NCBI GenBank assembly: GCA_963790205.1
Contig: CAWBNQ010000003.1
Span: 960,001 to 1,024,000, forward strand
Origin: Nitrospirota bacterium
Lineage (GTDB): Bacteria; Nitrospirota; UBA9217
Direction of reading: 5' to 3'
Length of the DNA stretch: 64,000 nucleotides
Position numbers and translations under genes: made by a program. Numbering within the stretch: the first letter of the stretch is position 1; each line of letters starts with the position of its first letter. Below the pieces are notes generated by a model that saw nothing but the letters and a program-made list of their open reading frames with translations, was not told where the DNA came from and made no database searches. Positions 28,292-53,235 of this stretch are shown here, piece after piece.

Positions 28292-28336
28292 TTGACAAGA
28301 GCGGCCATGCCTGTTAATGTTGTGTGCATATGCACA
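28292..28336 (+). promoter_or_regulatory. sigma70 promoter and palindromic operator at the start of the co-oriented island
   Basis: TTGACA (28292-28297), 17 bp spacer, TAATGT (28315-28320); perfect palindrome TGTGCATATGCACA (28323-28336). Confidence 0.7.
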
Positions 28337-28351
28337 ATAAAGAGGATGGAT

Positions 28352-28627
28352 ATGTCGCCAAGGTGCAAGAAGCCGCGGAACTGCAAATGCAAGTTTAAAG
28401 GCAAAGCGTTCAAGCCCACATGCATTCCGATGTCCGAGATCGAGCAGGTGCCCTTGTTGCGTGAAGAGCTTGAGGCTTTAAAACTTTGCGATCTTGATGA
28501 CCTTACTCAAGCGGAGGCCGGCACGAGGATGGGTGTATCAAGAGGAACCATTCAAAGAATCCTCACCGTTGCGAGGAAAAAGGTTGCGAAAGCCCTGAGC
28601 AAAGGCCAGGCTATCGTATTTGAATAA
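28352..28627 (+). CDS. DUF134 domain HTH protein
   Basis: MSPR.KKPR.C, FKP..IP, EELEALKLCD..LTQ.EAG.RMGVSRGTIQRIL..ARKKVA.AL. Confidence 0.92.
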   Translation: MSPRCKKPRNCKCKFKGKAFKPTCIPMSEIEQVPLLREELEALKLCDLDDLTQAEAGTRMGVSRGTIQRILTVARKKVAKALSKGQAIVFE

Positions 28628-28661
28628 TCGTCGTATAAACCATACCAAGGAGGAACATCAC

Positions 28662-29042
28662 ATGAAAATCTGTTTTCCAGTCCAGAATGACAATGGCATC
28701 GAGAGCGCCGTGTACAATCACTTCGGCTCCGCACCGGTATTTGTCGTTTTCGATACGGACACGAACAGTGTCGCGTCGATCAACAATCGGGACCAGCACC
28801 ACACGCATGGCGCATGCAACCCGATGAAGGCACTTGACAATCAAAAAGTAGATGCTATTGTCGTTGGCGGCATCGGAGCGGGCGCGCTCACGAGGCTGAA
28901 CCAGATGGGGATCACGGTGCATCGCTCACAGGGGGAGACAATACGGGAAAATATTTCGATGTTTCAGGCTAAAACCCTTCCCGTACTGACGGTCCAGGGG
29001 TGCTGCGGCGGCCATAGCGACGACGGGGGCTGCGCCCATTAA
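28662..29042 (+). CDS. NifB/NifX-family (IssA-like) metallocluster-binding protein
   Basis: MKICFP, HFGSAP.F, HG.CNP, VDAIVVGGIGAGA and a Cys/His-rich tail. Confidence 0.9.
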   Translation: MKICFPVQNDNGIESAVYNHFGSAPVFVVFDTDTNSVASINNRDQHHTHGACNPMKALDNQKVDAIVVGGIGAGALTRLNQMGITVHRSQGETIRENISMFQAKTLPVLTVQGCCGGHSDDGGCAH

Positions 29043-29073
29043 GAATCATCGTCAGCATCACAAGGAGAATAAG

Positions 29074-29442
29074 ATGGAAAACAAGGAATTCGTCTTCGTG
29101 CTCTCTCATTCGTATGATGCTATTGAACGCGCAGCTGCGGCGCTCCAACTTGCCACGAACATGGCGGCTTTCGACGCCAAAATAGATTTCTTTCTTATAA
29201 ATGAGGGAGTGCATCTCGCCAAAAAAGGATTCGCCGAATCGGTCACTTGGCAGAAGGGATTTTCACCTGTTGCTGAGCTTATGAAAAGCCTGGTTGAGGA
29301 GTTCGACTGCAAGTTTTATATCTGCGCATCCTGCGTAAAACCCTACGGGCTTGAAGGCGCTGAGTGGATTAAGAATGCAGAGGTCAAACCTGGCTCCTAT
29401 CTCGGCGAATTGCTTATGAAAAGGCAGAATGTGACGTTTTAA
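29074..29442 (+). CDS. DsrE-family sulfur relay protein
   Basis: FFLINEGVHLAKKG and FYICASC motifs. Confidence 0.85.
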   Translation: MENKEFVFVLSHSYDAIERAAAALQLATNMAAFDAKIDFFLINEGVHLAKKGFAESVTWQKGFSPVAELMKSLVEEFDCKFYICASCVKPYGLEGAEWIKNAEVKPGSYLGELLMKRQNVTF

Positions 29443-29521
29443 AGAGGGTGCCGCTCACAGAATGATCCAAGCGTATCTCCGGAAAGAACTACGACTATCA
29501 CAGACAAAGAGGGAAAGAATT

Positions 29522-29923
29522 ATGGCTAGAATGCTGGCAGCAATCATCGTGAGCATCATGCTCGCTGCAGCAGTTAATCAGGCGCAGGCGGGCAATCCGC
29601 CAGCTCCGCTCAGTACTCCGGAGATAAGGCGGAGCATCAGCTCCGGCAAAAAGACGATCATCTTTTTTCTCAATCCGAACGGAGGCCCCTGTAGGGCTCA
29701 GAACGAGGTGCTCACCGGTCTTCAGAAGGACAGAAAGAACAATTTCAACGTTGCCTATGTGAGCGCAATGCAGCAGGAGAACCGGAAGGCTTTCTATGAC
29801 TATGGAGTGCGCGGTCTTCCGACGCTGGTGCTCGTGGACGGCAGCGGCAAGATCAACAGGGTGTTTCCTCCAGGCATCCAATCCTATGATGCTCTGGCAG
29901 CGGCGCTGGATGGCATCAAGTAG
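29522..29923 (+). CDS. exported thioredoxin-fold protein (single Cys)
   Basis: Signal peptide, FFLNPNGGPC, YGVRGLPTLVLVDGSGKI cis-Pro loop. Confidence 0.8.
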   Translation: MARMLAAIIVSIMLAAAVNQAQAGNPPAPLSTPEIRRSISSGKKTIIFFLNPNGGPCRAQNEVLTGLQKDRKNNFNVAYVSAMQQENRKAFYDYGVRGLPTLVLVDGSGKINRVFPPGIQSYDALAAALDGIK

Positions 29924-30564
29924 TGGGTATTAATTTACCCAACATGGTTCTTGCCGTGGGCGCGGGTCTGGCGAGCGTGTTGTCGCCCTGCGTATTGCCG
30001 GTCGTGCCGGTCATCGTAGCTGGTGCAGACAGAAAGGACCGGCTTCGTCCCTTCTTGATCGTGCTTGGTCTGTCATCGACATTCATGGCCATGGGGGCGA
30101 TCTCATCGTTGTTCGGCGCCTACCTGATCGGCCGCACACGGTACATCGAGATCGCCGGCGACCTGATCATTATTCTCATGGGCGCGATGGTGCTTTTCGA
30201 CATGAGCGTTTTCAAACGCTTCTACCAGCTTTCAAATATTCAGGTGAACGGCAGCGGGCGTTTTAGCGGGCTGGTGCTCGGCATGGCTCTCGGCCTGGTC
30301 TGGGTGCCGTGCATCGGCCCTTTCCTGTCCAGCATCCTTGCCATGGTGGGAACGGATGGAAAAATATCGCAAGGCATCCTCATGCTCGGTTTTTACTCAA
30401 TCGGCCTTGCGATACCTATGCTTTTCGTAGCCTATTCATCACACATGCTCCAAAGCAGGCTTCGGGCGCTTGCACAGCATGATACAGTCCTGCGATACGT
30501 GTCCGGCAGCATTCTCATCGGGTTCGGAGTCTATTCGATCGCCATCGGGAACATCGCCTTTTAA
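29923..30564 (+). CDS. ccdA: CcdA/DsbD-family membrane disulfide transporter
   Basis: SVLSPCVLPVVP and LGLVWVPCIGPFL motifs. Confidence 0.9.
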   Translation: MGINLPNMVLAVGAGLASVLSPCVLPVVPVIVAGADRKDRLRPFLIVLGLSSTFMAMGAISSLFGAYLIGRTRYIEIAGDLIIILMGAMVLFDMSVFKRFYQLSNIQVNGSGRFSGLVLGMALGLVWVPCIGPFLSSILAMVGTDGKISQGILMLGFYSIGLAIPMLFVAYSSHMLQSRLRALAQHDTVLRYVSGSILIGFGVYSIAIGNIAF

Positions 30565-30669
30565 CGGCCTAGGGATCATGAGTCGTTAGGGAATTCCATG
30601 TGTTTACTTTACCCAAAAGCGGATAAGTACCGGCACCAGAAAAAAGAATCCCGGCTAAAGGAGGCAGTT

Positions 30670-31125
30670 ATGAAAACAGCAAGAATTGTCAGCGTGGCAG
30701 TTGCGTTATCAGTGCTTTTTCTCTTTTCGGCCGCCCTTGCGGGCCCCTGGCAAGGCTGGCGAGGGAGCGGGGGGTGGGGGATGGGCTCATCCTACCAGAG
30801 GATGTACAACCCGGCGACGGTGGAGACCGTTTCGGGCGTTGTTGAATCAGTGGACAAAATCACGCCGGTGAAGGGGATGTATTCGGGTATCCATCTCGCG
30901 CTTAAGACCGACAAGGAGACCATAGCCGTTCATCTCGGCCCGGAATGGTACATTGAGCGGCAGGACGTGAAGCTCGAAAAAGGCGACAAGATCGAGGTGA
31001 AGGGATCACGGATAACCTTCGATGGCAAACCGGCCATCATCGCGGCAGAGTGCAAAAAAGGTGACAGCGTTCTTGTCCTGCGGGATAGCGCGGGCGTTCC
31101 CGCATGGGCGGGGTGGAGAAGATAA
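30670..31125 (+). CDS. periplasmic OB-fold protein (MamS/MamX-like domain), copy 1
   Basis: Signal peptide, Gly/Trp-rich linker, YNPATVETVSG.V, VHLGPEWY, GDKIEVKGS and LRD..G.PAW. Confidence 0.75.
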   Translation: MKTARIVSVAVALSVLFLFSAALAGPWQGWRGSGGWGMGSSYQRMYNPATVETVSGVVESVDKITPVKGMYSGIHLALKTDKETIAVHLGPEWYIERQDVKLEKGDKIEVKGSRITFDGKPAIIAAECKKGDSVLVLRDSAGVPAWAGWRR

Positions 31126-31197
31126 ATAATTTAAAAAGGCCCGTTCTAAGCCGGGGCGGGCTCTTTCCTTGACCAAAAGGAACGATGGGGAGTCATT

Positions 31198-31680
31198 ATG
31201 TCTGAGAACGAGAAGGAAGAGCTGGAGGGGTCCTTAACAGGATATAAACAGAAAATCAACCATCTGTCCAAGGCGACACTGTCCTGGGACAAGGAACTGA
31301 TATTCGTCGGCAGGACCCAGGAAGGGTATGAGATAGAGTTTGACGCCCATGTCCAGTGGGGCTGCAAACCGACGGACGGCCTTCTCTTGAGCCTTGCCGG
31401 GTGCATGGGAATCGACGTGGTCATGTTCCTGCAAAAGATGAAAATGGAACTGGAAAGCTTCAAAGTGGACATTATCGGCGAGAGGAACCCCACTCCGCCG
31501 CAATATTTTAAAACAGTTGACCTGGTCCTGCATCTGAAAGGGAAAAACCTCAATCCCAAGAAAGTCGCCCGCGCCGTATCCCTTTCGCACGAAAAATACT
31601 GCTCCGTTTACAACTCACTGCGAAAAGACATGGATGTAAAGGTCTCGTATAACATTACCGATACCGCGTCCGGCAATTAA
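31198..31680 (+). CDS. OsmC family protein
   Basis: KPTDGLLLSLAGCMGIDVV and LSHEKYCSVYNSL. Confidence 0.9.
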   Translation: MSENEKEELEGSLTGYKQKINHLSKATLSWDKELIFVGRTQEGYEIEFDAHVQWGCKPTDGLLLSLAGCMGIDVVMFLQKMKMELESFKVDIIGERNPTPPQYFKTVDLVLHLKGKNLNPKKVARAVSLSHEKYCSVYNSLRKDMDVKVSYNITDTASGN

Positions 31681-31717
31681 TTTTCACGTTCATAACCATG
31701 GAAGGAGAATAATAAAA

Positions 31718-32290
31718 ATGAGAAAAAAATGGCTCATGTTTTCCCTTGTACTTGTCCTGAGCGCGGGTCCCGCAATGGCGGACGATCTTGCGAAATTTCA
31801 GGAAGAGAGCCGCGCTGTTGTTAAAGAAATGGTTTCCAGGCTTGGCGGCGCGCTGCAGAAAGAGATGACGGCAAATGGCCCGGCTGCGGCAATCACGGTA
31901 TGCAAGGACCTTGCCCCGGCAATTACCTCCGATCTTTCCCGCAAGACCGGGCAGCGCATCACGCGGGTTTCCTTAAGGACACGAAATCCCCTGCTTGGCT
32001 CGCCGGACGCATGGGAACAGAAGGTATTGGCTGATTTTGCACGTCGCGCGGAAAAGGAAAATCCCGCAACGATAGAATACGCTGAAATCGTTACGGAACC
32101 TCAAGGCAAGTTTATGCGCTATATGAAAGCGATCCCGATGCAGGATGTCTGCCTCAAGTGTCATGGTTCATTGGAAACCATTGCACCGCAGGTCAAGGAA
32201 CGGCTTGATGCCGAGTATCCGCACGATAAAGCCACCGGCTACGCAATCAATCAAATACGCGGCGCATTCTCAATTAAGAAAGCGATGTAA
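31718..32290 (+). CDS. Tll0287-like (DUF3365) c-type heme protein
   Basis: Signal peptide, AITVC, RVSLRTRNP...PD.WE, RYMKAI, CLKCHG and YPHDKATGY...IRGAFS. Confidence 0.9.
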   Translation: MRKKWLMFSLVLVLSAGPAMADDLAKFQEESRAVVKEMVSRLGGALQKEMTANGPAAAITVCKDLAPAITSDLSRKTGQRITRVSLRTRNPLLGSPDAWEQKVLADFARRAEKENPATIEYAEIVTEPQGKFMRYMKAIPMQDVCLKCHGSLETIAPQVKERLDAEYPHDKATGYAINQIRGAFSIKKAM

Positions 32291-32469: not shown

Positions 32470-32515
32470 TTGACAGGGCAGCTATCATTATATAATATAT
32501 AAATATATATTTATA
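32470..32515 (+). promoter_or_regulatory. ars cluster promoter with candidate ArsR operator
   Basis: TTGACA at 32470-32475, AT-rich -10 region, perfect 18-bp palindrome TATAAATATATATTTATA (32498-32515). Confidence 0.6.
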
Positions 32516-32531: not shown

Positions 32532-33479
32532 GTGCTTAAGGAATTCGCCGACTACATTACCTATACACTCCTGAAACTGGAACCGACCAGCCATTTGGGG
32601 GACGCCCTCAATTTCTTTATCTACGATACCCTTAAGATATTCCTGCTGCTCACCACCATTGTATATGTAGTGGCGATCATCCGGGCATACTTCCCGCCTG
32701 AAAAAACCAAGCGGATACTGTCGCACAAGCGTTTATACATCGGTAATATCATGGCTGCCTTGCTTGGTATCGTCACACCGTTTTGTTCCTGTTCCGCAGT
32801 CCCGCTCTTCATCGGCTTCGTAGAAGCCGGAGTGCCTCTCGGCGTTACCTTCTCTTTCCTCATCTCCTCGCCCATGGTAAACGAAATTGCCTTGATCATG
32901 CTGTGGGGCCTCTTTGGCTGGAAGATCGCCTTGGTCTACACCGGCACCGGGGTCGTCCTGGCGATCCTGTCCGGTATCGTCATCGGCAAACTCAAGATGG
33001 AAAAGTATGTCCAGGACTATGTCTGGGAAATAAAGGCGGGAACAGGGGAGATCGTGGAAACGAACTTCCGCGAGAAACTCATTTATGCGCGTGACTATAC
33101 AACGGAGCTTTTGAAGAGGATCTGGCCGTATGTGATCATCGGTATTGCGCTGGGCGGCATTGTTCACGGCTACATCCCTACCGATTTCGTGGTCAAATAT
33201 GCGGGACGCGACAACCCCTTCGCCGTACTGGTCGCTGTTTTGATCGGCGTCCCGCTTTACAGCAACGCTGCCGGCATGATTCCTGTCGTACAGGCCCTTG
33301 TGGGAAAAGGAATGGCCATGGGCACGGTGCTTGCCTTTATGATGTCGGTTACCGCGATATCATTTCCCGAGGCGGTTATTCTCAAGAATGTACTGAAGAT
33401 GCGTCTCATCTATACTTTCTTCGGGATTGTGGCAGTGGGCATTATTATTGTTGGCTATCTGTTTAACGCAATTTTATAG
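32532..33479 (+). CDS. arsP: ArsP/DUF318 family permease
   Basis: FFIYDTLKI, TPFCSCSAVPLFIG, FLISSPMVNE, GVPLYSNAAG and GTVLAFMMSV; ars context. Confidence 0.85.
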   Translation: MLKEFADYITYTLLKLEPTSHLGDALNFFIYDTLKIFLLLTTIVYVVAIIRAYFPPEKTKRILSHKRLYIGNIMAALLGIVTPFCSCSAVPLFIGFVEAGVPLGVTFSFLISSPMVNEIALIMLWGLFGWKIALVYTGTGVVLAILSGIVIGKLKMEKYVQDYVWEIKAGTGEIVETNFREKLIYARDYTTELLKRIWPYVIIGIALGGIVHGYIPTDFVVKYAGRDNPFAVLVAVLIGVPLYSNAAGMIPVVQALVGKGMAMGTVLAFMMSVTAISFPEAVILKNVLKMRLIYTFFGIVAVGIIIVGYLFNAIL

Positions 33480-33491
33480 GAGGATTCAGTG

Positions 33492-33734
33492 ATGGAAATC
33501 AAAGTGCTCGGACCCGGTTGCGCGAATTGTGTCAAGATGGAGGACCTGGCGAAGACCGCCGTGAAAGAACTCGGTATCGAAGCAAAGATCGAGAAGATCA
33601 CGGACCTCGGCCAGATCGCCAGGCACGGCATTCTATCAACGCCGGGTCTTATTGTGAACGGCAAGATCAAACATTCCGGAAAGCCGTTGCCCAGCCTGGA
33701 CAAAGTAAAAGAGTTGATCAAAGGCGAAGCGTAG
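33492..33734 (+). CDS. small redox-active disulfide protein (MTH895-like thioredoxin family)
   Basis: MEIKVLGPGCANC and GILSTPGLIVNGK. Confidence 0.92.
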   Translation: MEIKVLGPGCANCVKMEDLAKTAVKELGIEAKIEKITDLGQIARHGILSTPGLIVNGKIKHSGKPLPSLDKVKELIKGEA

Positions 33735-33743
33735 GAGAAAACT

Positions 33744-34118
33744 ATGAACGATCTGGTGACGATATTCAAGGCACTTTCCGACGAAACCAGGCTCAGGATC
33801 ATCAAGCTTCTGGAAGAAGGCGAGCTGTGCGTGTGCGACATCACCGCTGCGCTCGATATGGTGCAGCCGAAAGTGTCCTTTCATCTCAGCGCCCTGAAGG
33901 AAGCGGGGCTCATCAAGGACCGTAAATCGGGTAAATGGATACATTACAGCCTGAATGAAAAAGATCTATTCAGGCGAATGCTGATCCTGTCCGCCTGCGA
34001 GCGGATGCAAGACGGCGCGGTATCGGGAGACAGAAAACGGTTAACTGCCTTTCTGGGGAGCAAGGAATCCGGAGGCAAGGTCGTTACGCTGAAGAGCAAG
34101 TCCCGGTGCTGTGGGTAA
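33744..34118 (+). CDS. arsR: ArsR family As(III)-responsive repressor
   Basis: FKALSDETRLRI, ELCVCDI, QPKVSFHL..LKEAGLI and C-terminal CC. Confidence 0.92.
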   Translation: MNDLVTIFKALSDETRLRIIKLLEEGELCVCDITAALDMVQPKVSFHLSALKEAGLIKDRKSGKWIHYSLNEKDLFRRMLILSACERMQDGAVSGDRKRLTAFLGSKESGGKVVTLKSKSRCCG

Positions 34119-34160: not shown

Positions 34161-35237
34161 ATGGGTGAAAACACAGGGAAAAAGCTTTCGTTTATGGACC
34201 GGTTTCTTACGCTCTGGATCTTCGCGGCAATGGCTTTCGGTGTCGGCCTCGGGTATTTCATCCAGGGCACCGAAGCCTTTATCAACAGCTTCCAGGTCGG
34301 AACGACCAATATCCCGATTGCCGTTGGGCTCATCCTCATGATGTACCCGCCGCTGGCCAAGGTCAAGTATGAGGAACTCGGCGAGGTCTTCCGGAACAAA
34401 AAGGTCCTGGGCCTCTCGCTCGTCCAGAATTGGGTTATCGGCCCCATTCTGATGTTCGCGCTCGCGATCATCTTTCTCCGGTCCTATCCCGAATACATGG
34501 TCGGTCTCATCATGATCGGCCTTGCCCGGTGCATCGCGATGGTGATCGTCTGGAACGACCTTGCCTGCGGCGATCCCGAGTACGCCGCCGGTCTCGTGGC
34601 GTTCAACTCTATTTTCCAGGTTCTTTTCTTTTCCATCTATGCCTATATCTTCATAACCGTGCTCCCTGTCTGGTTCGGACTTAAGGGGGTTGTCGTCCAT
34701 GTGACGATAGGCCAGATCGCCGAAAGCGTGTTCATCTACTTGGGCATACCTTTTATAGCAGGCATGCTGACCCGTTTCGTACTCATCAAGATCAAGGACC
34801 GCCAGTGGTACGAGTCGGTCTTCATCCCGAAGATCAGCCCGATCACGCTCATCTCGCTCCTGTTCACCATCATCGTTATGTTCTCGCTCAAGGGCAACTA
34901 TATCGTCAGGCTTCCCCTTGATGTGCTGCGCATCGCCGTCCCGCTGCTGATCTATTTCGTGGTCATGTTCCTGGTGTCGTTCTATCTCGGGAAGAAGATC
35001 GGGGCGGATTATCCGAAGACCGCGACGCTTTCTTTTACTGCCGCGAGCAATAACTTTGAACTGGCAATTGCCGTGGCAGTGGCCGTTTTCGGAATCAATT
35101 CAGGAGCCGCCTTCGCGGCAGTCATCGGGCCGCTGGTAGAGGTTCCGGTGCTGATCGGGCTCGTGAACGTGTCACGATATTTTCAGAGGAGATATTTTTC
35201 TGTCGAGTATTGCCGGGTAACCAAGACGGCACAGTAA
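34161..35237 (+). CDS. acr3: Acr3 arsenite efflux transporter
   Basis: [43 protein letters not shown] and GPLVEVPVL. Confidence 0.96.
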
Positions 35238-35262: not shown

Positions 35263-35643
35263 ATGAAAATATTGAAAACAACCTTGACGACATTCATAGG
35301 GATACTGCTTCTGGCCGGCTACAGCCAGGCGAGCGACGTTGACAACGTGCTTGCCCAGGCAAAAAAGGACGGCAAGGTCGTTATGCTGGAGCTTGGCTCC
35401 GTGGGCTGCATCCCCTGCGAGCAGATGAAGCCGGTGATGGATAAGCTCAGGTCCGGCTACAAAGACAAGCTGGAAGTCTATTTCGTCGACCTAAGAAAGG
35501 ACAATGCAACCGGTAGGCGTTTCGGCGTGTACGTAATCCCGACGCAGGTCTTCCTGGACCAGAACGGCAAGGAATTCCACCGACACGTCGGGTTCTATGC
35601 CTATGATGAGATTACGCCGGTATTAAAGAAGGCGGGATTGTAG
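35263..35643 (+). CDS. exported thioredoxin family protein
   Basis: Signal peptide, ELGSVGCIPCEQM and IPTQVFLD.NGKE..RHVG. Confidence 0.9.
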   Translation: MKILKTTLTTFIGILLLAGYSQASDVDNVLAQAKKDGKVVMLELGSVGCIPCEQMKPVMDKLRSGYKDKLEVYFVDLRKDNATGRRFGVYVIPTQVFLDQNGKEFHRHVGFYAYDEITPVLKKAGL

Positions 35644-35664
35644 CAGAGATGCGAGGTGTCTGCA

Positions 35665-35889
35665 ATGGCGAATCAAATATGCTGCTGTTTCGGTTACACC
35701 GATGAAGACATCATCAGGGATGTACAGGGCAATAAGGGCGTCTCGACCATTCTGGAAAGAATCGTGAACGAGAAGAAAAAGGGCGGGTGCAACTGCGGGA
35801 CCAATCATCCGCTCGGGCGGTGATGCATGGCTGATGTCCGCCGGGTCGTGGACAAGGCAAAAGAGCAGCTCGGGACTATCGGAGGATAA
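35665..35889 (+). CDS. probable selenoprotein: BFD-like (2Fe-2S) / CopZ-associated Cys-rich metallochaperone-like domain, 74 aa with Sec53
   Basis: Not in ORF track. RBS GAGGTG, ATG 35665: MANQICCCFGYTDEDIIRDVQGNKGVSTILERIVNEKKKGGCNCGTNHPLGR-[TGA 35821]-CMADVRRVVDKAKEQLGTIGG-TAA. Read-through fills the gap to the next gene; hairpin follows the TGA. Confidence 0.8.
35835..35854 (+). other. candidate bacterial SECIS hairpin
   Basis: TGTCCGC-CGGGTC-GTGGACA (7-bp stem with one G-U pair, G-rich loop) beginning 11 nt after the in-frame TGA. Confidence 0.65.
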
Positions 35890-35901: not shown

Positions 35902-36617
35902 ATGAAATTCGCTGTACTCGGAGACATACACGGCAATATCGAGGCGCTCACTTCCGCTTATTCCGCCGTCCAGCTCCTGAAGCCGGACAAAGTGTATCAT
36001 CTCGGCGACCTCGGAGGCTACTCACCGTTCGTAAATGAGGTAGTGGCTTTTCTCATCGAGCATAACATCGAGGGCGTTCAAGGGAATTACGACGAGACCG
36101 TCGCGAATGACCGGGAGCACTGCGGGTGCAAATACGAAGACCCGGTCCAGGAAGAGATGGCGAACAAGTCTTTTGAGTGGACGAAGAAGCATGCTTCCCC
36201 GGAGACGAAAGAGTACCTGAGAAAGCTTCCGTTCTCGATATCGTTCGCTGTGGAGGGGAAAAAGGTGCTGCTGTTCCATGCCACGCCTTCGAAGAACAAC
36301 TTGTATTGGTTCGAGGACCGGCCGGATAAGTTCTTTCGGGAAATGGCGGCGAAGACCGACGCCGATGTGATGATCTACGGACATACGCACAAACCGTATT
36401 GGAAGGATTTTGGCGGCACGGTCTTCGTCAATGCCGGAAGCGTGGGCAAATCAAAGACGGGAATCCGAGGGCTTGTGTGCCCCTGATCACTATAATAGCG
36501 GACAAGGTGAATGTCGAGTTTCTTCGGGTCCCTTACGATGTACAAAAGACGGCTGACGCTATTATTGCGAGCGGGCTGCCGGGGTATTTTGCGGACAGGC
36601 TGAAAGAGGCCAGATAG
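35902..36617 (+). pseudogene. metallophosphoesterase family protein with a single frameshift near 36451
   Basis: GDIHGN, HLGDLGGY, QGNYD, HCGC, YGHTH and NAGSVGK in ORF 35902-36486; expected continuation KDGNPRA...VEFLRVPYDV...A.AI..SGLP..FA.RL lies in ORF 36399-36617. Confidence 0.8.
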
Positions 36618-36621
36618 AGGC

Positions 36622-37311
36622 ATGGAATCCCTGTTCAACAACATTCAGCACATCATCCAGCACCGGCAGGGGATGGCGTTCCTCGCCGTCTTCGTAGCCG
36701 GGCTCATTTCCGCCGCCAGCCCCTGTGTGCTTGCGGCCATTCCGCTCATCATCGGCTATGTGGGAGGTTACTCGGAAGGGAACAAGAAAAAAGCGGCCCT
36801 CTATTCGCTCGTCTTCATTCTCGGTCTTTCCATCACCTTTACGCTTCTCGGCGCAGCTGCATCGCTCATGGGCGGATTACTCGGCTTCATGGGCAGGTGG
36901 CTCTACATTGCGCTTGCGGTCATCGCTGTGATCATGGGTCTTCAACTCATGGGCGTCCTCTCAATTCCGCTGCCGTTTCAGAAGATCAGGATGGTCAAGA
37001 GCAAGGGGCTATGGGGTGCCTTCTTCCTCGGGCTTCTGACCGGCACGGTCTCTTCCCCCTGCGCCACGCCGGTTCTGGCCGTGATCCTTGCTTATGTATC
37101 CACCCAGGGCGATATCCTGTACGGCGGGTCGCTGCTCTTTGCGTATGCTGTGGGACATTGCGCGTTGATTTTCATCGCCGGTCTTTCCATCGGTCTCACG
37201 GAGAGCATTGTAAGTTCGAAAGGTATCAAGAATTTCTCTCTCTATTCGAAACGGTTCAGCGGCGTATTGCTGACGTTGGCCGGGCTGTATATCGGCATAG
37301 TAAACTTTTGA
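36622..37311 (+). CDS. CcdA/DsbD-family membrane disulfide transporter, second copy
   Basis: ASPCVLAAIPLIIGYV and SSPCATPVL motifs. Confidence 0.9.
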   Translation: MESLFNNIQHIIQHRQGMAFLAVFVAGLISAASPCVLAAIPLIIGYVGGYSEGNKKKAALYSLVFILGLSITFTLLGAAASLMGGLLGFMGRWLYIALAVIAVIMGLQLMGVLSIPLPFQKIRMVKSKGLWGAFFLGLLTGTVSSPCATPVLAVILAYVSTQGDILYGGSLLFAYAVGHCALIFIAGLSIGLTESIVSSKGIKNFSLYSKRFSGVLLTLAGLYIGIVNF

Positions 37312-37457
37312 GGACGCAATTATGCGGCAACGAAAAGTAAGAATTAAAAAACGTTTCTCCGTCATTTGCCACTGCTGGTGGAACGGCTGGTAACTCGGTT
37401 GAGGTAATGGAGTTCAATGTTCGACGTAAAACCAACTCATCACAACGGAGGTCCGCC

Positions 37458-38066
37458 ATGAAAGAATTTAATGAGTATTTTGACACCGCACTGAAGTTTC
37501 ACGGCCATAAGTGTCCGGCCATGCCCATGGGTCTGAGGGCCGGTCTCGCTGCCATGAAGGTGCTCGGCGTTGAAAGGTCGCAAGACAAGGAACTCTTCGT
37601 GGAAGCGGAAACAGGCAAAGGACATGCCGCCGGATGTTTCCTGGACGGGATCATGACCGCCACCGGCTGCACCTACGGAAAGGCGAACATCCAGAAGCTC
37701 TATTACAACAAAATGGCCTTCACGCTCATAGACGCCAAGAGCGGCAAGGCGGTCCGGGTCTCTCTGAAGCCTGAATTCTTTGAAAAGGCCCTCAATTCGC
37801 CCTTTGTACAGGAGAGGAAAAAAGGCGTGCCGCCTCAGGATATTCCCGCATCGATTACGGACCCTCTCGTCGATCGGATATTGGGACTTTCTGAAACCGA
37901 CTTCCTGAATATCAGCGACGTGTTCCATAAAGACCAGAAGAAGGGATCTTCGAATTTCGAGATCAAACGCTGCGCGAAATGCGGAGAGGCGGTGTTCACC
38001 GATAAACTGACAAAGGCTCCTGACGGACGGCTTCTTTGCATCCCCTGCGCTGAACACGGGAAATAG
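37458..38066 (+). CDS. FmdE family protein with C-terminal Zn finger
   Basis: FHGHKCP...[20 protein letters not shown] and CAKCGE...CIPC. Confidence 0.9.
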
Positions 38067-38229
38067 GAAGCCTGTCGTACCCGTCGCGCAGAAAGCCAAA
38101 CTTACAGCAGAGGTCGCAGAGAACGGAGACTTTCTCTGTTCCTGAGAGGATCTTTTTCTCTGCGCTCTTTGCCTTCCTTGATGTGGTCAGTTCTGCGCGA
38201 GTACGATACGGCAAAAAAGGAGACCTGTC

Positions 38230-38982
38230 ATGCTTACCATCAATGCAGCCGCGGCCGCCCTCGTCTTTGTCTTCACCACGTTTCTGACCATTGCGGGCGT
38301 AGGCGCGGCCTTCATAGTGATCCCAACGTTCTACTGGCTCGGGGTACCGCTTACCGAGGCCATGGCCATCGGCCTGCTCTTGAACGCCATCAGCATGACC
38401 TTTGCTTCGGCCAACTATATCCGCTACAAACTTGTCGTGTTCCGAACGGCCGTACCCATCATCGTGCTTGCCATCGTCTTTTCTCCCCTGGGCGCGTACT
38501 CGACGCGGTATTTTCCTAAGAACGTTCTTATTCTGCTCTTCGTGCTCTTTCTCGTATTCGCTGCATCAATGATGCTTTTTTACAAGCCGAAGAAGAGAAC
38601 GGATGGCCAGGGAGACAGCGGGAAGGAACTCAAGACCGGCATTGGTCTGGGCATCGGGGCTGGGTATCTGGGCGGCCTCCTGGGTGTCGGCGGTGGGAAC
38701 TTCATCGTTCCGGCCCTCGTCTGGCTCGGATTCGATCCTAAAAAAGCATCCGCTACTACTGCCTTCATCGTTGTCTTCTCCTCGCTCTCGGGCTTCTTCG
38801 GCCATGCGGCCACAGAGTCCGTTAACTGGAGCCTTCTGGCGTTTGCAGCAATCGGCTCGGTCGCGGGGGCGATCCTGGGCTCATGGCTCATGCACAAGAA
38901 GCTTAATGCAAATCAGGTGAAGAAGATCATCGGTGTCGTGCTCTATGCCATAGCAGCAAAGATGGCGTGGGGATTGCTGTAA
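38230..38982 (+). CDS. TauE/SafE family sulfite exporter-like permease
   Basis: AGVGAAFIVIP and GGLLGVGGGNFIVP...KKA.ATT repeats, about 8 TM segments. Confidence 0.88.
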   Translation: MLTINAAAAALVFVFTTFLTIAGVGAAFIVIPTFYWLGVPLTEAMAIGLLLNAISMTFASANYIRYKLVVFRTAVPIIVLAIVFSPLGAYSTRYFPKNVLILLFVLFLVFAASMMLFYKPKKRTDGQGDSGKELKTGIGLGIGAGYLGGLLGVGGGNFIVPALVWLGFDPKKASATTAFIVVFSSLSGFFGHAATESVNWSLLAFAAIGSVAGAILGSWLMHKKLNANQVKKIIGVVLYAIAAKMAWGLL

Positions 38983-52188: not shown

Positions 52189-53235
52189 ATGAACACCATC
52201 TCCCTTTTGGTTACCTCAGGACTTGAGGCCATCTACGACTATGTGCTTGCGCACACGCTGTTCTGTCTTGTTCCGGCCTTCTTTATCGCCGGAGCAATGG
52301 CGGCGCTCATTCCTAAAGACCTGCTGTTGCCATACCTTGGAAAGAAATCCCCCAAACACATCGCCTATCCCATTGCCGTTGTTACCGGTCTACTTCTTGC
52401 GGTCTGTTCCTGTACGGTGCTCCCGCTCTTTGCGGGGATACGCAAGGGCGGAGCGGGCATAGGCCCGGCAATCGCTTTTCTGTATACTGCCCCTGCGACA
52501 AACATTGTGGCGATCCTGTACACAGGCAGCCTTATCGGATGGGATATTGCCCTGGCCCGCATATTCTTTTCCATTCTGTTCGCAGTTGTCATTGGAATGC
52601 TCATTAATGGGCTTTTCCGTGACGACGGCGAATCGGATGTCGCCGATACCTTCGCGAAAAGCGATGCAAAATACGATACGAAACGGTTGTGGTATCTTTT
52701 TTCAGCCCTGATCGGAATTCTCCTGGCAGGGACGAGGATAAGCGACCCCGTGTTTAAGTACGCGACCGTTCTGTCGCTTATCGCAATCGCTGTAGTAATC
52801 GCAAAGAAATATTTTACAAAGGATGAAGTCCATGGCTGGATGCTGGAAAGCTGGGGTTTTGCCAAAACGATTGCGCCTCTGCTTCTGGCCGGGGTATTTG
52901 TATCAGGAATCGTCAGGGTCGTGTTGCCCCAGGAGTTTGTCGCAAAGTATGTAGGGTCAAATTCTCTATCCAACATGATCATCCCGGTCATCTTCGGCGT
53001 GCTCGTCTACTTTCCGACGCTTGTGGAAGTGCCGATGGCAAAGACTTTTCTTGATCTCGGCATGGCAAAAGGACCGCTTCTGGCTTATCTTCTTTCCGAT
53101 CCCGTGCTGTCGCTTCCGAGCATTCTGGTCGTCAGCAAAATCATGGGGGCAAAAAGAACCGCAGTCTATGTGGCTTTAATCATTGTCTTTACCATTTGCG
53201 GCGGATATCTGTTCGGTCTCATGCAGGGAAAATAA
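52189..53235 (+). CDS. ArsP/DUF318 family permease, second type
   Basis: H.LFCLVPAFFIAGA, LAVCSCTVLPLFAGI, GAG.GPA.AFL, YFPTL.EVP and SLPS. Confidence 0.88.
   Translation: MNTISLLVTSGLEAIYDYVLAHTLFCLVPAFFIAGAMAALIPKDLLLPYLGKKSPKHIAYPIAVVTGLLLAVCSCTVLPLFAGIRKGGAGIGPAIAFLYTAPATNIVAILYTGSLIGWDIALARIFFSILFAVVIGMLINGLFRDDGESDVADTFAKSDAKYDTKRLWYLFSALIGILLAGTRISDPVFKYATVLSLIAIAVVIAKKYFTKDEVHGWMLESWGFAKTIAPLLLAGVFVSGIVRVVLPQEFVAKYVGSNSLSNMIIPVIFGVLVYFPTLVEVPMAKTFLDLGMAKGPLLAYLLSDPVLSLPSILVVSKIMGAKRTAVYVALIIVFTICGGYLFGLMQGK

Follow-up and report, generated by a model that had tools for sequence, protein, structure and literature searches.

A probable selenocysteine in a short CopZ-associated BFD-like domain protein from a Nitrospirota arsenic-resistance cassette

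Does an in-frame TGA in a small open reading frame (ORF) of a bacterial arsenic-resistance cassette end the protein, or does it encode selenocysteine (Sec), and what might the product do beside arsenic transporters? The question is raised by a window of 64,000 nucleotides from a Nitrospirota genome (assembly GCA_963790205.1, contig CAWBNQ010000003.1, positions 960,001 to 1,024,000). In this window a gap of 258 bp, between the stop of a thioredoxin gene at 35643 and the start of a metallophosphoesterase gene at 35902, holds an ORF that is crossed by a TGA. The original prediction, made from the letters of the window, read this ORF as an unannotated selenoprotein with a BFD-like or CopZ-associated cysteine-rich domain that could act as an As(III) chaperone or an Fe-S redox partner. 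Comparison with homologues makes it nearly certain in our judgement that the TGA is recoded as Sec. What is new in the present analysis is the genomic context of the gene, namely an ars cassette, along with a mer context for its Cys-containing relatives.

The gene and its cassette

The genes from arsP through tauE all lie on one strand. The features of this region are:

32470..32498, plus strand: sigma-70-like promoter TTGACA-17-TAATAT, 5' of arsP, likely operon start (consensus match only; the scan found 9 sites against 5.1 +/- 2.2 in shuffles)
32532..33479, plus strand: ArsP-family permease (PF03773, 277 bits)
33489..33734, plus strand: MTH895/ArsE-family thioredoxin-like protein (TIGR00412, over cut-off)
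33744..34118, plus strand: ArsR/SmtB repressor with an ELCVCD motif, which we take to be of the As(III) type
34161..35237, plus strand: Acr3 arsenite efflux transporter (TIGR00832, 462.7 bits, over cut-off)
35263..35643, plus strand: thioredoxin (CIPC) with a signal-peptide-like N-terminus by eye, likely periplasmic
35653..35658, plus strand: Shine-Dalgarno-like GAGGTG in the sequence, 6 nt 5' of the ATG at 35665
35665..35889, plus strand: predicted selenoprotein ORF of 74 aa, a stand-alone CopZ-associated BFD-like [2Fe-2S]-type domain (form 1) with U53
35821..35823, plus strand: in-frame TGA, codon 53, the inferred Sec codon of a G-R-U-C motif
35835..35854, plus strand: bSECIS-type hairpin with a 7-bp stem and a 6-nt loop, CGGGUC, with G at loop position 2
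35902..36617, plus strand: YfcE-type metallophosphoesterase with a frameshift near 36452 in the assembly
36622..37311, plus strand: CcdA/DsbD-transmembrane protein with a weak ArsG-like match under cut-off
37407..38982, plus strand: FmdE-family protein and TauE/SafE exporter, often in the same cassette

Past the TGA the frame stays open for 21 codons (CMADVRRVVDKAK...) and closes with a TAA at 35887-35889, 12 nt ahead of 35902. The gap, ribosome-binding site, TGA, in-frame extension, TAA spacing and hairpin are thus all seen directly in the sequence as first described. The claim that the gene is unannotated holds in part: gene callers do call it, but the call stops at the TGA, giving 52 residues. 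This truncated product is already present in a public protein collection, within a cluster of 56; among the cluster members listed, 14 of 15 have 52 aa, and the named ones among these 14 are labelled 'hypothetical protein'. By a pattern count, 85 of the best 150 database representatives stop just short of the Sec position, and ars-operon inventories of anaerobes therefore likely miss the gene. Five database proteins (P0004, P0006, P0010, P0015 and P0142) have W at the Sec position, which probably reflects translation of the TGA as Trp by gene callers under another code.

The frameshift in the metallophosphoesterase gene is either an assembly error or a strain-specific lesion, since contigs from all four runs compared have one base more near 36452. 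A second copy of this gene lies immediately before the window (C3:958273-959061). An ArsC-type arsenate reductase is encoded on another contig (C8:62480-62908), none being present in the ars cassette of the window. Upstream, at 28292-32290, there is a redox/sulfur cluster coding for DUF134, a NifB/FeMo-co domain, DsrE, a second CcdA, OsmC and a Tll0287-like protein; a thioredoxin in this cluster has the sequence NPNGGPC, which resembles the Cys-containing variant of the TsoC motif (weak NF045708 match). A distant second ArsP-like permease was detected with tblastn at 52297-53217, and the window scan gave no TGA-plus-hairpin candidate at it. Across the whole window, the search for other combinations of TGA, Cys motif and hairpin returned only two implausible antisense frames besides the gene under study.

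Recoding of the TGA

The nearest named contigs carrying homologues are from Nitrospirota. In a sample of this phylum 53 of 401 genomes gave a match, and 36 of the resulting 57 rows (34 genomes) have a TGA. These 36 rows and four further TGA loci make up the 40 Sec loci analysed below, together with 14 of the 21 stop-free rows, seven weak ones being left out. The TGA falls at position 53 in 40/40 of the short genomic homologues, all of which are short stand-alone domains; one of them has a stop 30 codons upstream and another has a long upstream frame with no recognisable domain. Two-domain proteins account for 13 of the 14 Cys loci, with 138-188 open codons 5' of the site. The proposal that the TGA occupies a Cys position is borne out by these alignments, as the corresponding codon is TGY in all 14 fetched Cys-form loci. 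Short forms with Cys also occur among database representatives. A plasmid collection yielded only six matches, all distant (35-38% identity), one of them under a merA gene.

The homologues continue past the TGA rather than ending at it, and the downstream conservation that the original prediction called for is present: C54 and D57 are invariant in the 40 loci and V58, R60 and V61 almost so, with a conserved C-x-x-D-V following the TGA both in the short genomic homologues and in the closest metagenomic ones. Among the best 80 of 381 metagenomic loci, which comprise 68 distinct cores and are close kin of the query, the TGA is present in 80/80 and the hairpin rule is passed by 76. The TGA is retained across eight Nitrospirota families and in one Phycisphaerae contig, and in a tree of 54 rows and 65 columns the 40 Sec rows all fall on one side of a branch (99/97).

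The hairpin begins 11 nt past the TGA, with arms at 35835-35841 and 35848-35854, its loop 18 nt from the UGA and an energy of -9.1 kcal/mol. According to a passage of PMC13188914, bSECIS elements have a loop of 3-9 nt, a stem of 4-16 bp, a G in the first two loop positions, a spacing of 16-37 nt and an energy of -7.5 kcal/mol or lower; all these rules are satisfied by the hairpin, as scored with our own script rather than bSECISearch. Taken alone, the hairpin is modest to weak evidence. In this genome 1707 long ORFs end in TGA; the same rules are passed at 93 of these ends, and at 57 the stability is at least as high. The z-score of the hairpin is -2.58 for a trimmed 31-mer as against +0.37, no better than shuffles, for a 60-mer. 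At gathering thresholds Rfam gave no match in the window or in the selA and selB loci.

Because it is conserved across homologues, the hairpin nonetheless goes far beyond chance. Its loop lies 18-19 nt from the UGA in all 40 TGA loci, in 36 of them at -7.5 kcal/mol or lower, and a SECIS-type hairpin is found in 0/14 Cys-form loci (one of them clipped by a contig end). The codons of the stem are frozen (V58 as GTC in 37/39, R59 as CGC in 29/29 and V62 as GTG in 24/25), in contrast to P49 and G51 outside the stem, which use all four codons. Over 33 distinct sequences pairing in the stem amounts to 97.4%, and 11 changes are two-sided, a combination matched by 0/500 shuffles; the two-sided covariation is confined to two stem pairs, and 97/500 shuffles get that many.

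The genome, which is 98% complete, has the Sec machinery that the original prediction asked for: selA, selB and selD are each over the profile cut-off and ARAGORN made two tRNA-Sec calls, one about 6 kb from selB. The SelD of this genome has an in-frame TGA of its own with a SECIS-type hairpin. The second tRNA-Sec call, a candidate, lies at C1:656899-656993, distant from selAB. Among the other TGA-form genomes selA is present in 33/33 (32 over the cut-off and one in pieces), compared with 7/19 Cys-only genomes and 191/401 genomes of the phylum sample, an association in which kin are not independent and the families involved are mostly selA-positive.

These data bear on the view that the TGA is a true stop, arising from a nonsense mutation or an assembly error and leaving a 52-residue fragment. 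Gene callers do record 52 aa, and the hairpin by itself is equalled by about 3-5% of ordinary TGA ends. Against this stand the persistence of the TGA through eight families and a second lineage with both protein and RNA conserved downstream, the exact Cys/TGA pairing, and the finding that the TGA form occurs only in selA-positive genomes among those tested. Moreover, two further runs, both belonging to one study, gave contigs that cross the ORF without gaps, with no difference at the TGA among those listed (11 of 12 and 9 of 10 differences are shown). We consider a true stop extremely improbable; SelB would almost certainly bind the hairpin and direct Sec insertion at codon 53.

Family, fold and the predicted cluster site

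The cysteines of the 74-residue protein were compared with the Archaeoglobus fulgidus CopZ structure 2HU9, whose Cys75, Cys77, Cys109 and Cys119 we take to be the [2Fe-2S] cluster ligands:

35680..35688, plus strand: C6-C7-C8 (CxC), with C6 and C8 aligning to Cys75 and Cys77 as predicted cluster ligands
35788..35796, plus strand: C42-x-C44, with C44 aligning to Cys109 as a predicted ligand
35824..35826, plus strand: C54, aligning to Cys119 as the predicted fourth ligand, which needs read-through of the TGA

U53 aligns with Cys118, adjoining Cys119, so that if these ligands are right Sec would occupy the position of a free cysteine beside the cluster. It is part of a G-x-U-C motif (G51-R52-U53-C54) whose G51 is kept in 38/40 loci. 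C44 is kept in 39/40, and C42 is invariant in the subfamily and has no counterpart in 2HU9. Codon 7 (35683-35685) is Cys here as against Tyr in at least 90% of the aligned homologues, giving CCC and not CYC, probably through a strain-level substitution. In one locus (L052, genome G271) Ser replaces C44, the sole loss of a predicted ligand among the 40; there the gene follows an ArsA-like ATPase gene (by eye) and faces an ArsC-like gene.

The originally proposed kinship with BFD-like and CopZ-associated domains is upheld by profile searches. The C-terminal half of NF047645 (CopZ_Nterm_CC, putative Fe-S cluster-binding metallochaperone; profile positions 86-137) is matched at E 1e-10, and a profile of the mixed long-plus-short family recovers 2HU9 at E 1.1e-24. 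All 34 aligned homologues match NF047645. The protein differs from that model in having no N-terminal Zn-type domain and UC in place of CC, and its 42 bits on a single domain fall below the two-domain, 100-bit level of the model. A search of this genome for a partner gene coding for the missing Zn-type domain gave none with the queries used. Weak matches were also obtained to NifU, to NF045877 (E 1.1e-5, 25.4 bits against a cut-off of 190) and to Pfam Fer2_BFD (PF04324; 14.4 bits, E 0.049, under the gathering score of 26). With a short-form-only profile 2HU9 appeared at only E 1.2, and phmmer with the single protein found no match in the PDB.

An AlphaFold model (pLDDT 87.0, pTM 0.73) has as its two best fold matches among 48,161 chains Pseudomonas Bfd [2Fe-2S] proteins (PDB 4E6K and 6E6Q; Z 5.8 with rmsd 2.5 over 54 residues, and Z 5.7 with rmsd 2.4 over 53), whose small helical [2Fe-2S] scaffold the model may share, with a longer loop between the last two ligands than in Bfd. 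This likeness is only suggestive, and Foldseek returned nothing at E <= 0.001 (E 6.9 for the Bfd comparison). No bfr neighbour was seen in the annotated loci. A BFD-like fold binding a [2Fe-2S] cluster via C6, C8, C44 and C54 is predicted on these grounds, with U53 as a non-ligand selenolate next to the cluster and the invariant C42 as a possible partner thiol.

The alternative of a cluster-free selenoprotein, whose six Cys and Sec residues would bind Zn, Cu or As in the manner of a small metallothionein or an ArsD-type chaperone, could draw on the two conserved thiol or selenol positions beyond what a [2Fe-2S] cluster needs, and on the score below the Pfam BFD cut-off. It appears quite improbable to us, since all four cluster-region positions of 2HU9 are conserved (C44 in all but one locus) and the best fold matches are [2Fe-2S] proteins. 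No ArsD family model occurs among the NCBIfam or Pfam matches, and an ArsD-like way of working would be compatible with the data.

In terms of published families, this protein is very likely a member of the (2Fe-2S)-binding protein CopZ family form 1 selenoprotein, having the expected GxUC motif, bSECIS-type element and Sec machinery, along with a domain of the cd10141 type as judged from the NF047645 and 2HU9 matches. The novelty implied at the outset is overstated, since published lists of selenoproteins already have the family, the motif and the short form that stands alone. The deep-Sep supplement (PMC12013277) has four short stand-alone members, including those of Cloacibacillus porcorum, Desulfosarcina widdelii and Desulfosediminicola flagellatus, which share the layout CxCF...CxC...NPxGxUCLxDV with our protein; compared by eye, our protein agrees with the D. 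widdelii entry in 33 of 63 columns. As the short form is printed there, both it and the family were already known as predictions. The catalogue representative WP_245779778.1, as given in a catalogue passage, has the two-domain form, unlike this short protein. Form 2, Csac_0668 (NF045877), belongs to the same domain family; in the catalogue passages the Sec of this form lies in an N-terminal CU motif, with CC kept where UC occurs here; the present protein has no N-terminal domain.

A. fulgidus CopZ itself shares the positions C6/C8/C44/U53/C54 (Cys75/77/109/118/119); it differs in that no Zn domain or fused HMA copper-chaperone domain is matched in our 74 residues, and in that our protein has the additional invariant C42, Sec at 53 and an ars rather than a cop context. 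The Fe-S domain of A. fulgidus CopZ mediates Cu(II) reduction, according to part of a review (PMC7558416). Neither CopZ nor 2Fe-2S occurs in the main text of PMC2398784, PMC5029168, PMC12013277 or PMC13326102, neither fulgidus nor Bfd in that of PMC11672702, and the first approximately 4 million characters of the BSepDB supplement hold no match. The catalogue passages and literature searched contain no description of the Nitrospirota subclade of form 1, and the portions of the literature covered link the family to no ars operon, a point that Haft and Tolstoy 2025 and its supplements may address.

Genomic context and possible functions

Flanks of up to about 7 kb, many of them shorter, were available for the 40 Sec loci. 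The neighbours encode ArsR in 20, Acr3 in 19, ArsE in 17, thioredoxin in 15, ArsP in 14, CcdA in 12 and HgcA in 4. Counting as ars-linked those loci with Acr3, ArsP, ArsA/ArsC, or ArsR plus ArsE, we found 23/40 to be so linked, and two short contigs carry other cassette genes. One Nitrospirota subclade has the cassette arsP-arsE-arsR-acr3-thioredoxin-(gene)-ccdA. In the best 80 of 381 metagenomic loci thioredoxin is a neighbour in 73, CcdA in 59 and Acr3 in 56; where present in these closest loci, the thioredoxin and CcdA genes are almost always the flanking ones. Of the loci in this set that span at least 4 kb, all close kin, 28 of 31 are ars-linked.

The reading that we prefer, tentatively and at a little below an even chance, is that of a cytoplasmic [2Fe-2S] selenoprotein which would capture or reduce As(III) or methyl-As(III) for Acr3 and ArsP; a cytoplasmic location is likely because the protein has no hydrophobic stretch. 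Judging from gene order, its gene would share a transcript with the cassette under control of the ArsR repressor, and arsenic would induce it. The U53/C42 site might then bind As(III) or methyl-As(III), or else reduce oxidised arsenical adducts via the cluster and the ArsE-type thioredoxin, and trivalent arsenic species would be handed to Acr3 or ArsP. The two-domain Cys relatives, where they stand beside mer genes, could play the corresponding part for Hg or Cu. The ars cassette and the mer context of the Cys forms together give a concrete hypothesis of metalloid handling, with one residue as a clear target for mutation. Here selenium chemistry would once more be directed against arsenic. The system is of a kind already known, and the main outcome is a corrected annotation, together with a hint of function.

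ArsE, ArsF and ArsG function as a redox chain. The same selenoprotein might never bind arsenic itself and might instead pass electrons, as donor or relay on the cytoplasmic side, to the CcdA and periplasmic thioredoxin encoded next to it, in an ArsE/F/G-like chain by which thiols of the envelope, or arsenicals, would be kept in the reduced state. Thioredoxin and CcdA genes are commoner than Acr3 in the closest metagenomic loci, a signal-peptide-like N-terminus is seen on the thioredoxin of the loci examined, and the cassette has both ArsE-family and weakly ArsG-like genes. This relay is the main rival of the preferred reading, and we regard it as fairly unlikely: in several ars-linked loci (G169, G385, G267, G135, G107, G185 and L010) the thioredoxin gene is absent and Acr3 is directly upstream, and the usual electron source of CcdA is a cytoplasmic thioredoxin, a part that ArsE could play.

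All ars-linked Sec copies fall inside one subclade of 27 rows (95/91), so the arsenic link probably represents one recruitment rather than many. No ars genes were found within the flanks of 15/40 Sec loci, several being short contigs; the neighbours in ars-free loci are, for instance, DsrE/TusA sulfur-transfer or housekeeping genes. Among the 14 Cys-form loci the neighbours include MerR in seven, a MerP-like protein in seven and MerF in three. These observations, with the presence of hgcAB in the same cassette in 4/40 loci, would suit a general soft-metal(loid) or redox buffer that has no arsenic specificity and was captured once into a mobile detoxification cassette. Such a buffer is in our estimate unlikely, as the place of the gene in the ars cassette is kept through many rearrangements of its neighbours, and a long Cys form from another branch of the tree also belongs to an ars operon.

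This long Cys form lies behind acr3 and a metallophosphoesterase gene in three loci of one genus (L077, L078 and L079, from genomes G039, G030 and G085), the order in L077 being arsR-acr3-MPE-(gene)-arsM-arsC; selA was not found in the three genomes of this genus. In the tree it branches separately from the Sec loci, and its occurrence here suggests that the domain came into ars operons a second time. On the most far-reaching interpretation, the Nitrospirota subclade would be a dedicated and hitherto undescribed component of arsenic resistance, a Se-dependent [2Fe-2S] micro-chaperone or reductase, and ars operons would have taken up the domain on two occasions, as the short Sec form and as the long Cys form. 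We consider this doubtful; if true, Sec beside the cluster would capture As(III) or methyl-As(III) and feed Acr3 or ArsP in anaerobes, and the hgcAB-bearing cassettes would tie selenium supply to both arsenic resistance and an operon of mercury methylators.

The hgcA gene occurs in the selenoprotein cassette in 4/40 genomic loci and in 3 of the best 80 of 381 metagenomic ones, HgcB matches being left uncounted because they included generic ferredoxins. Co-location of hgcAB with ars genes has already been reported, as stated in part of bioRxiv 2022.10.17.512643. The genome studied here has hgcA, with the cap-helix motif NVWCAAGK, and hgcB at C1:146827-148244 and is therefore a putative mercury methylator. 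In another locus (L070, genome G154) the long Cys form is fused C-terminally to what by eye is a MerT-like membrane domain, and the fusion gene stands between merR and a MerP-like gene.
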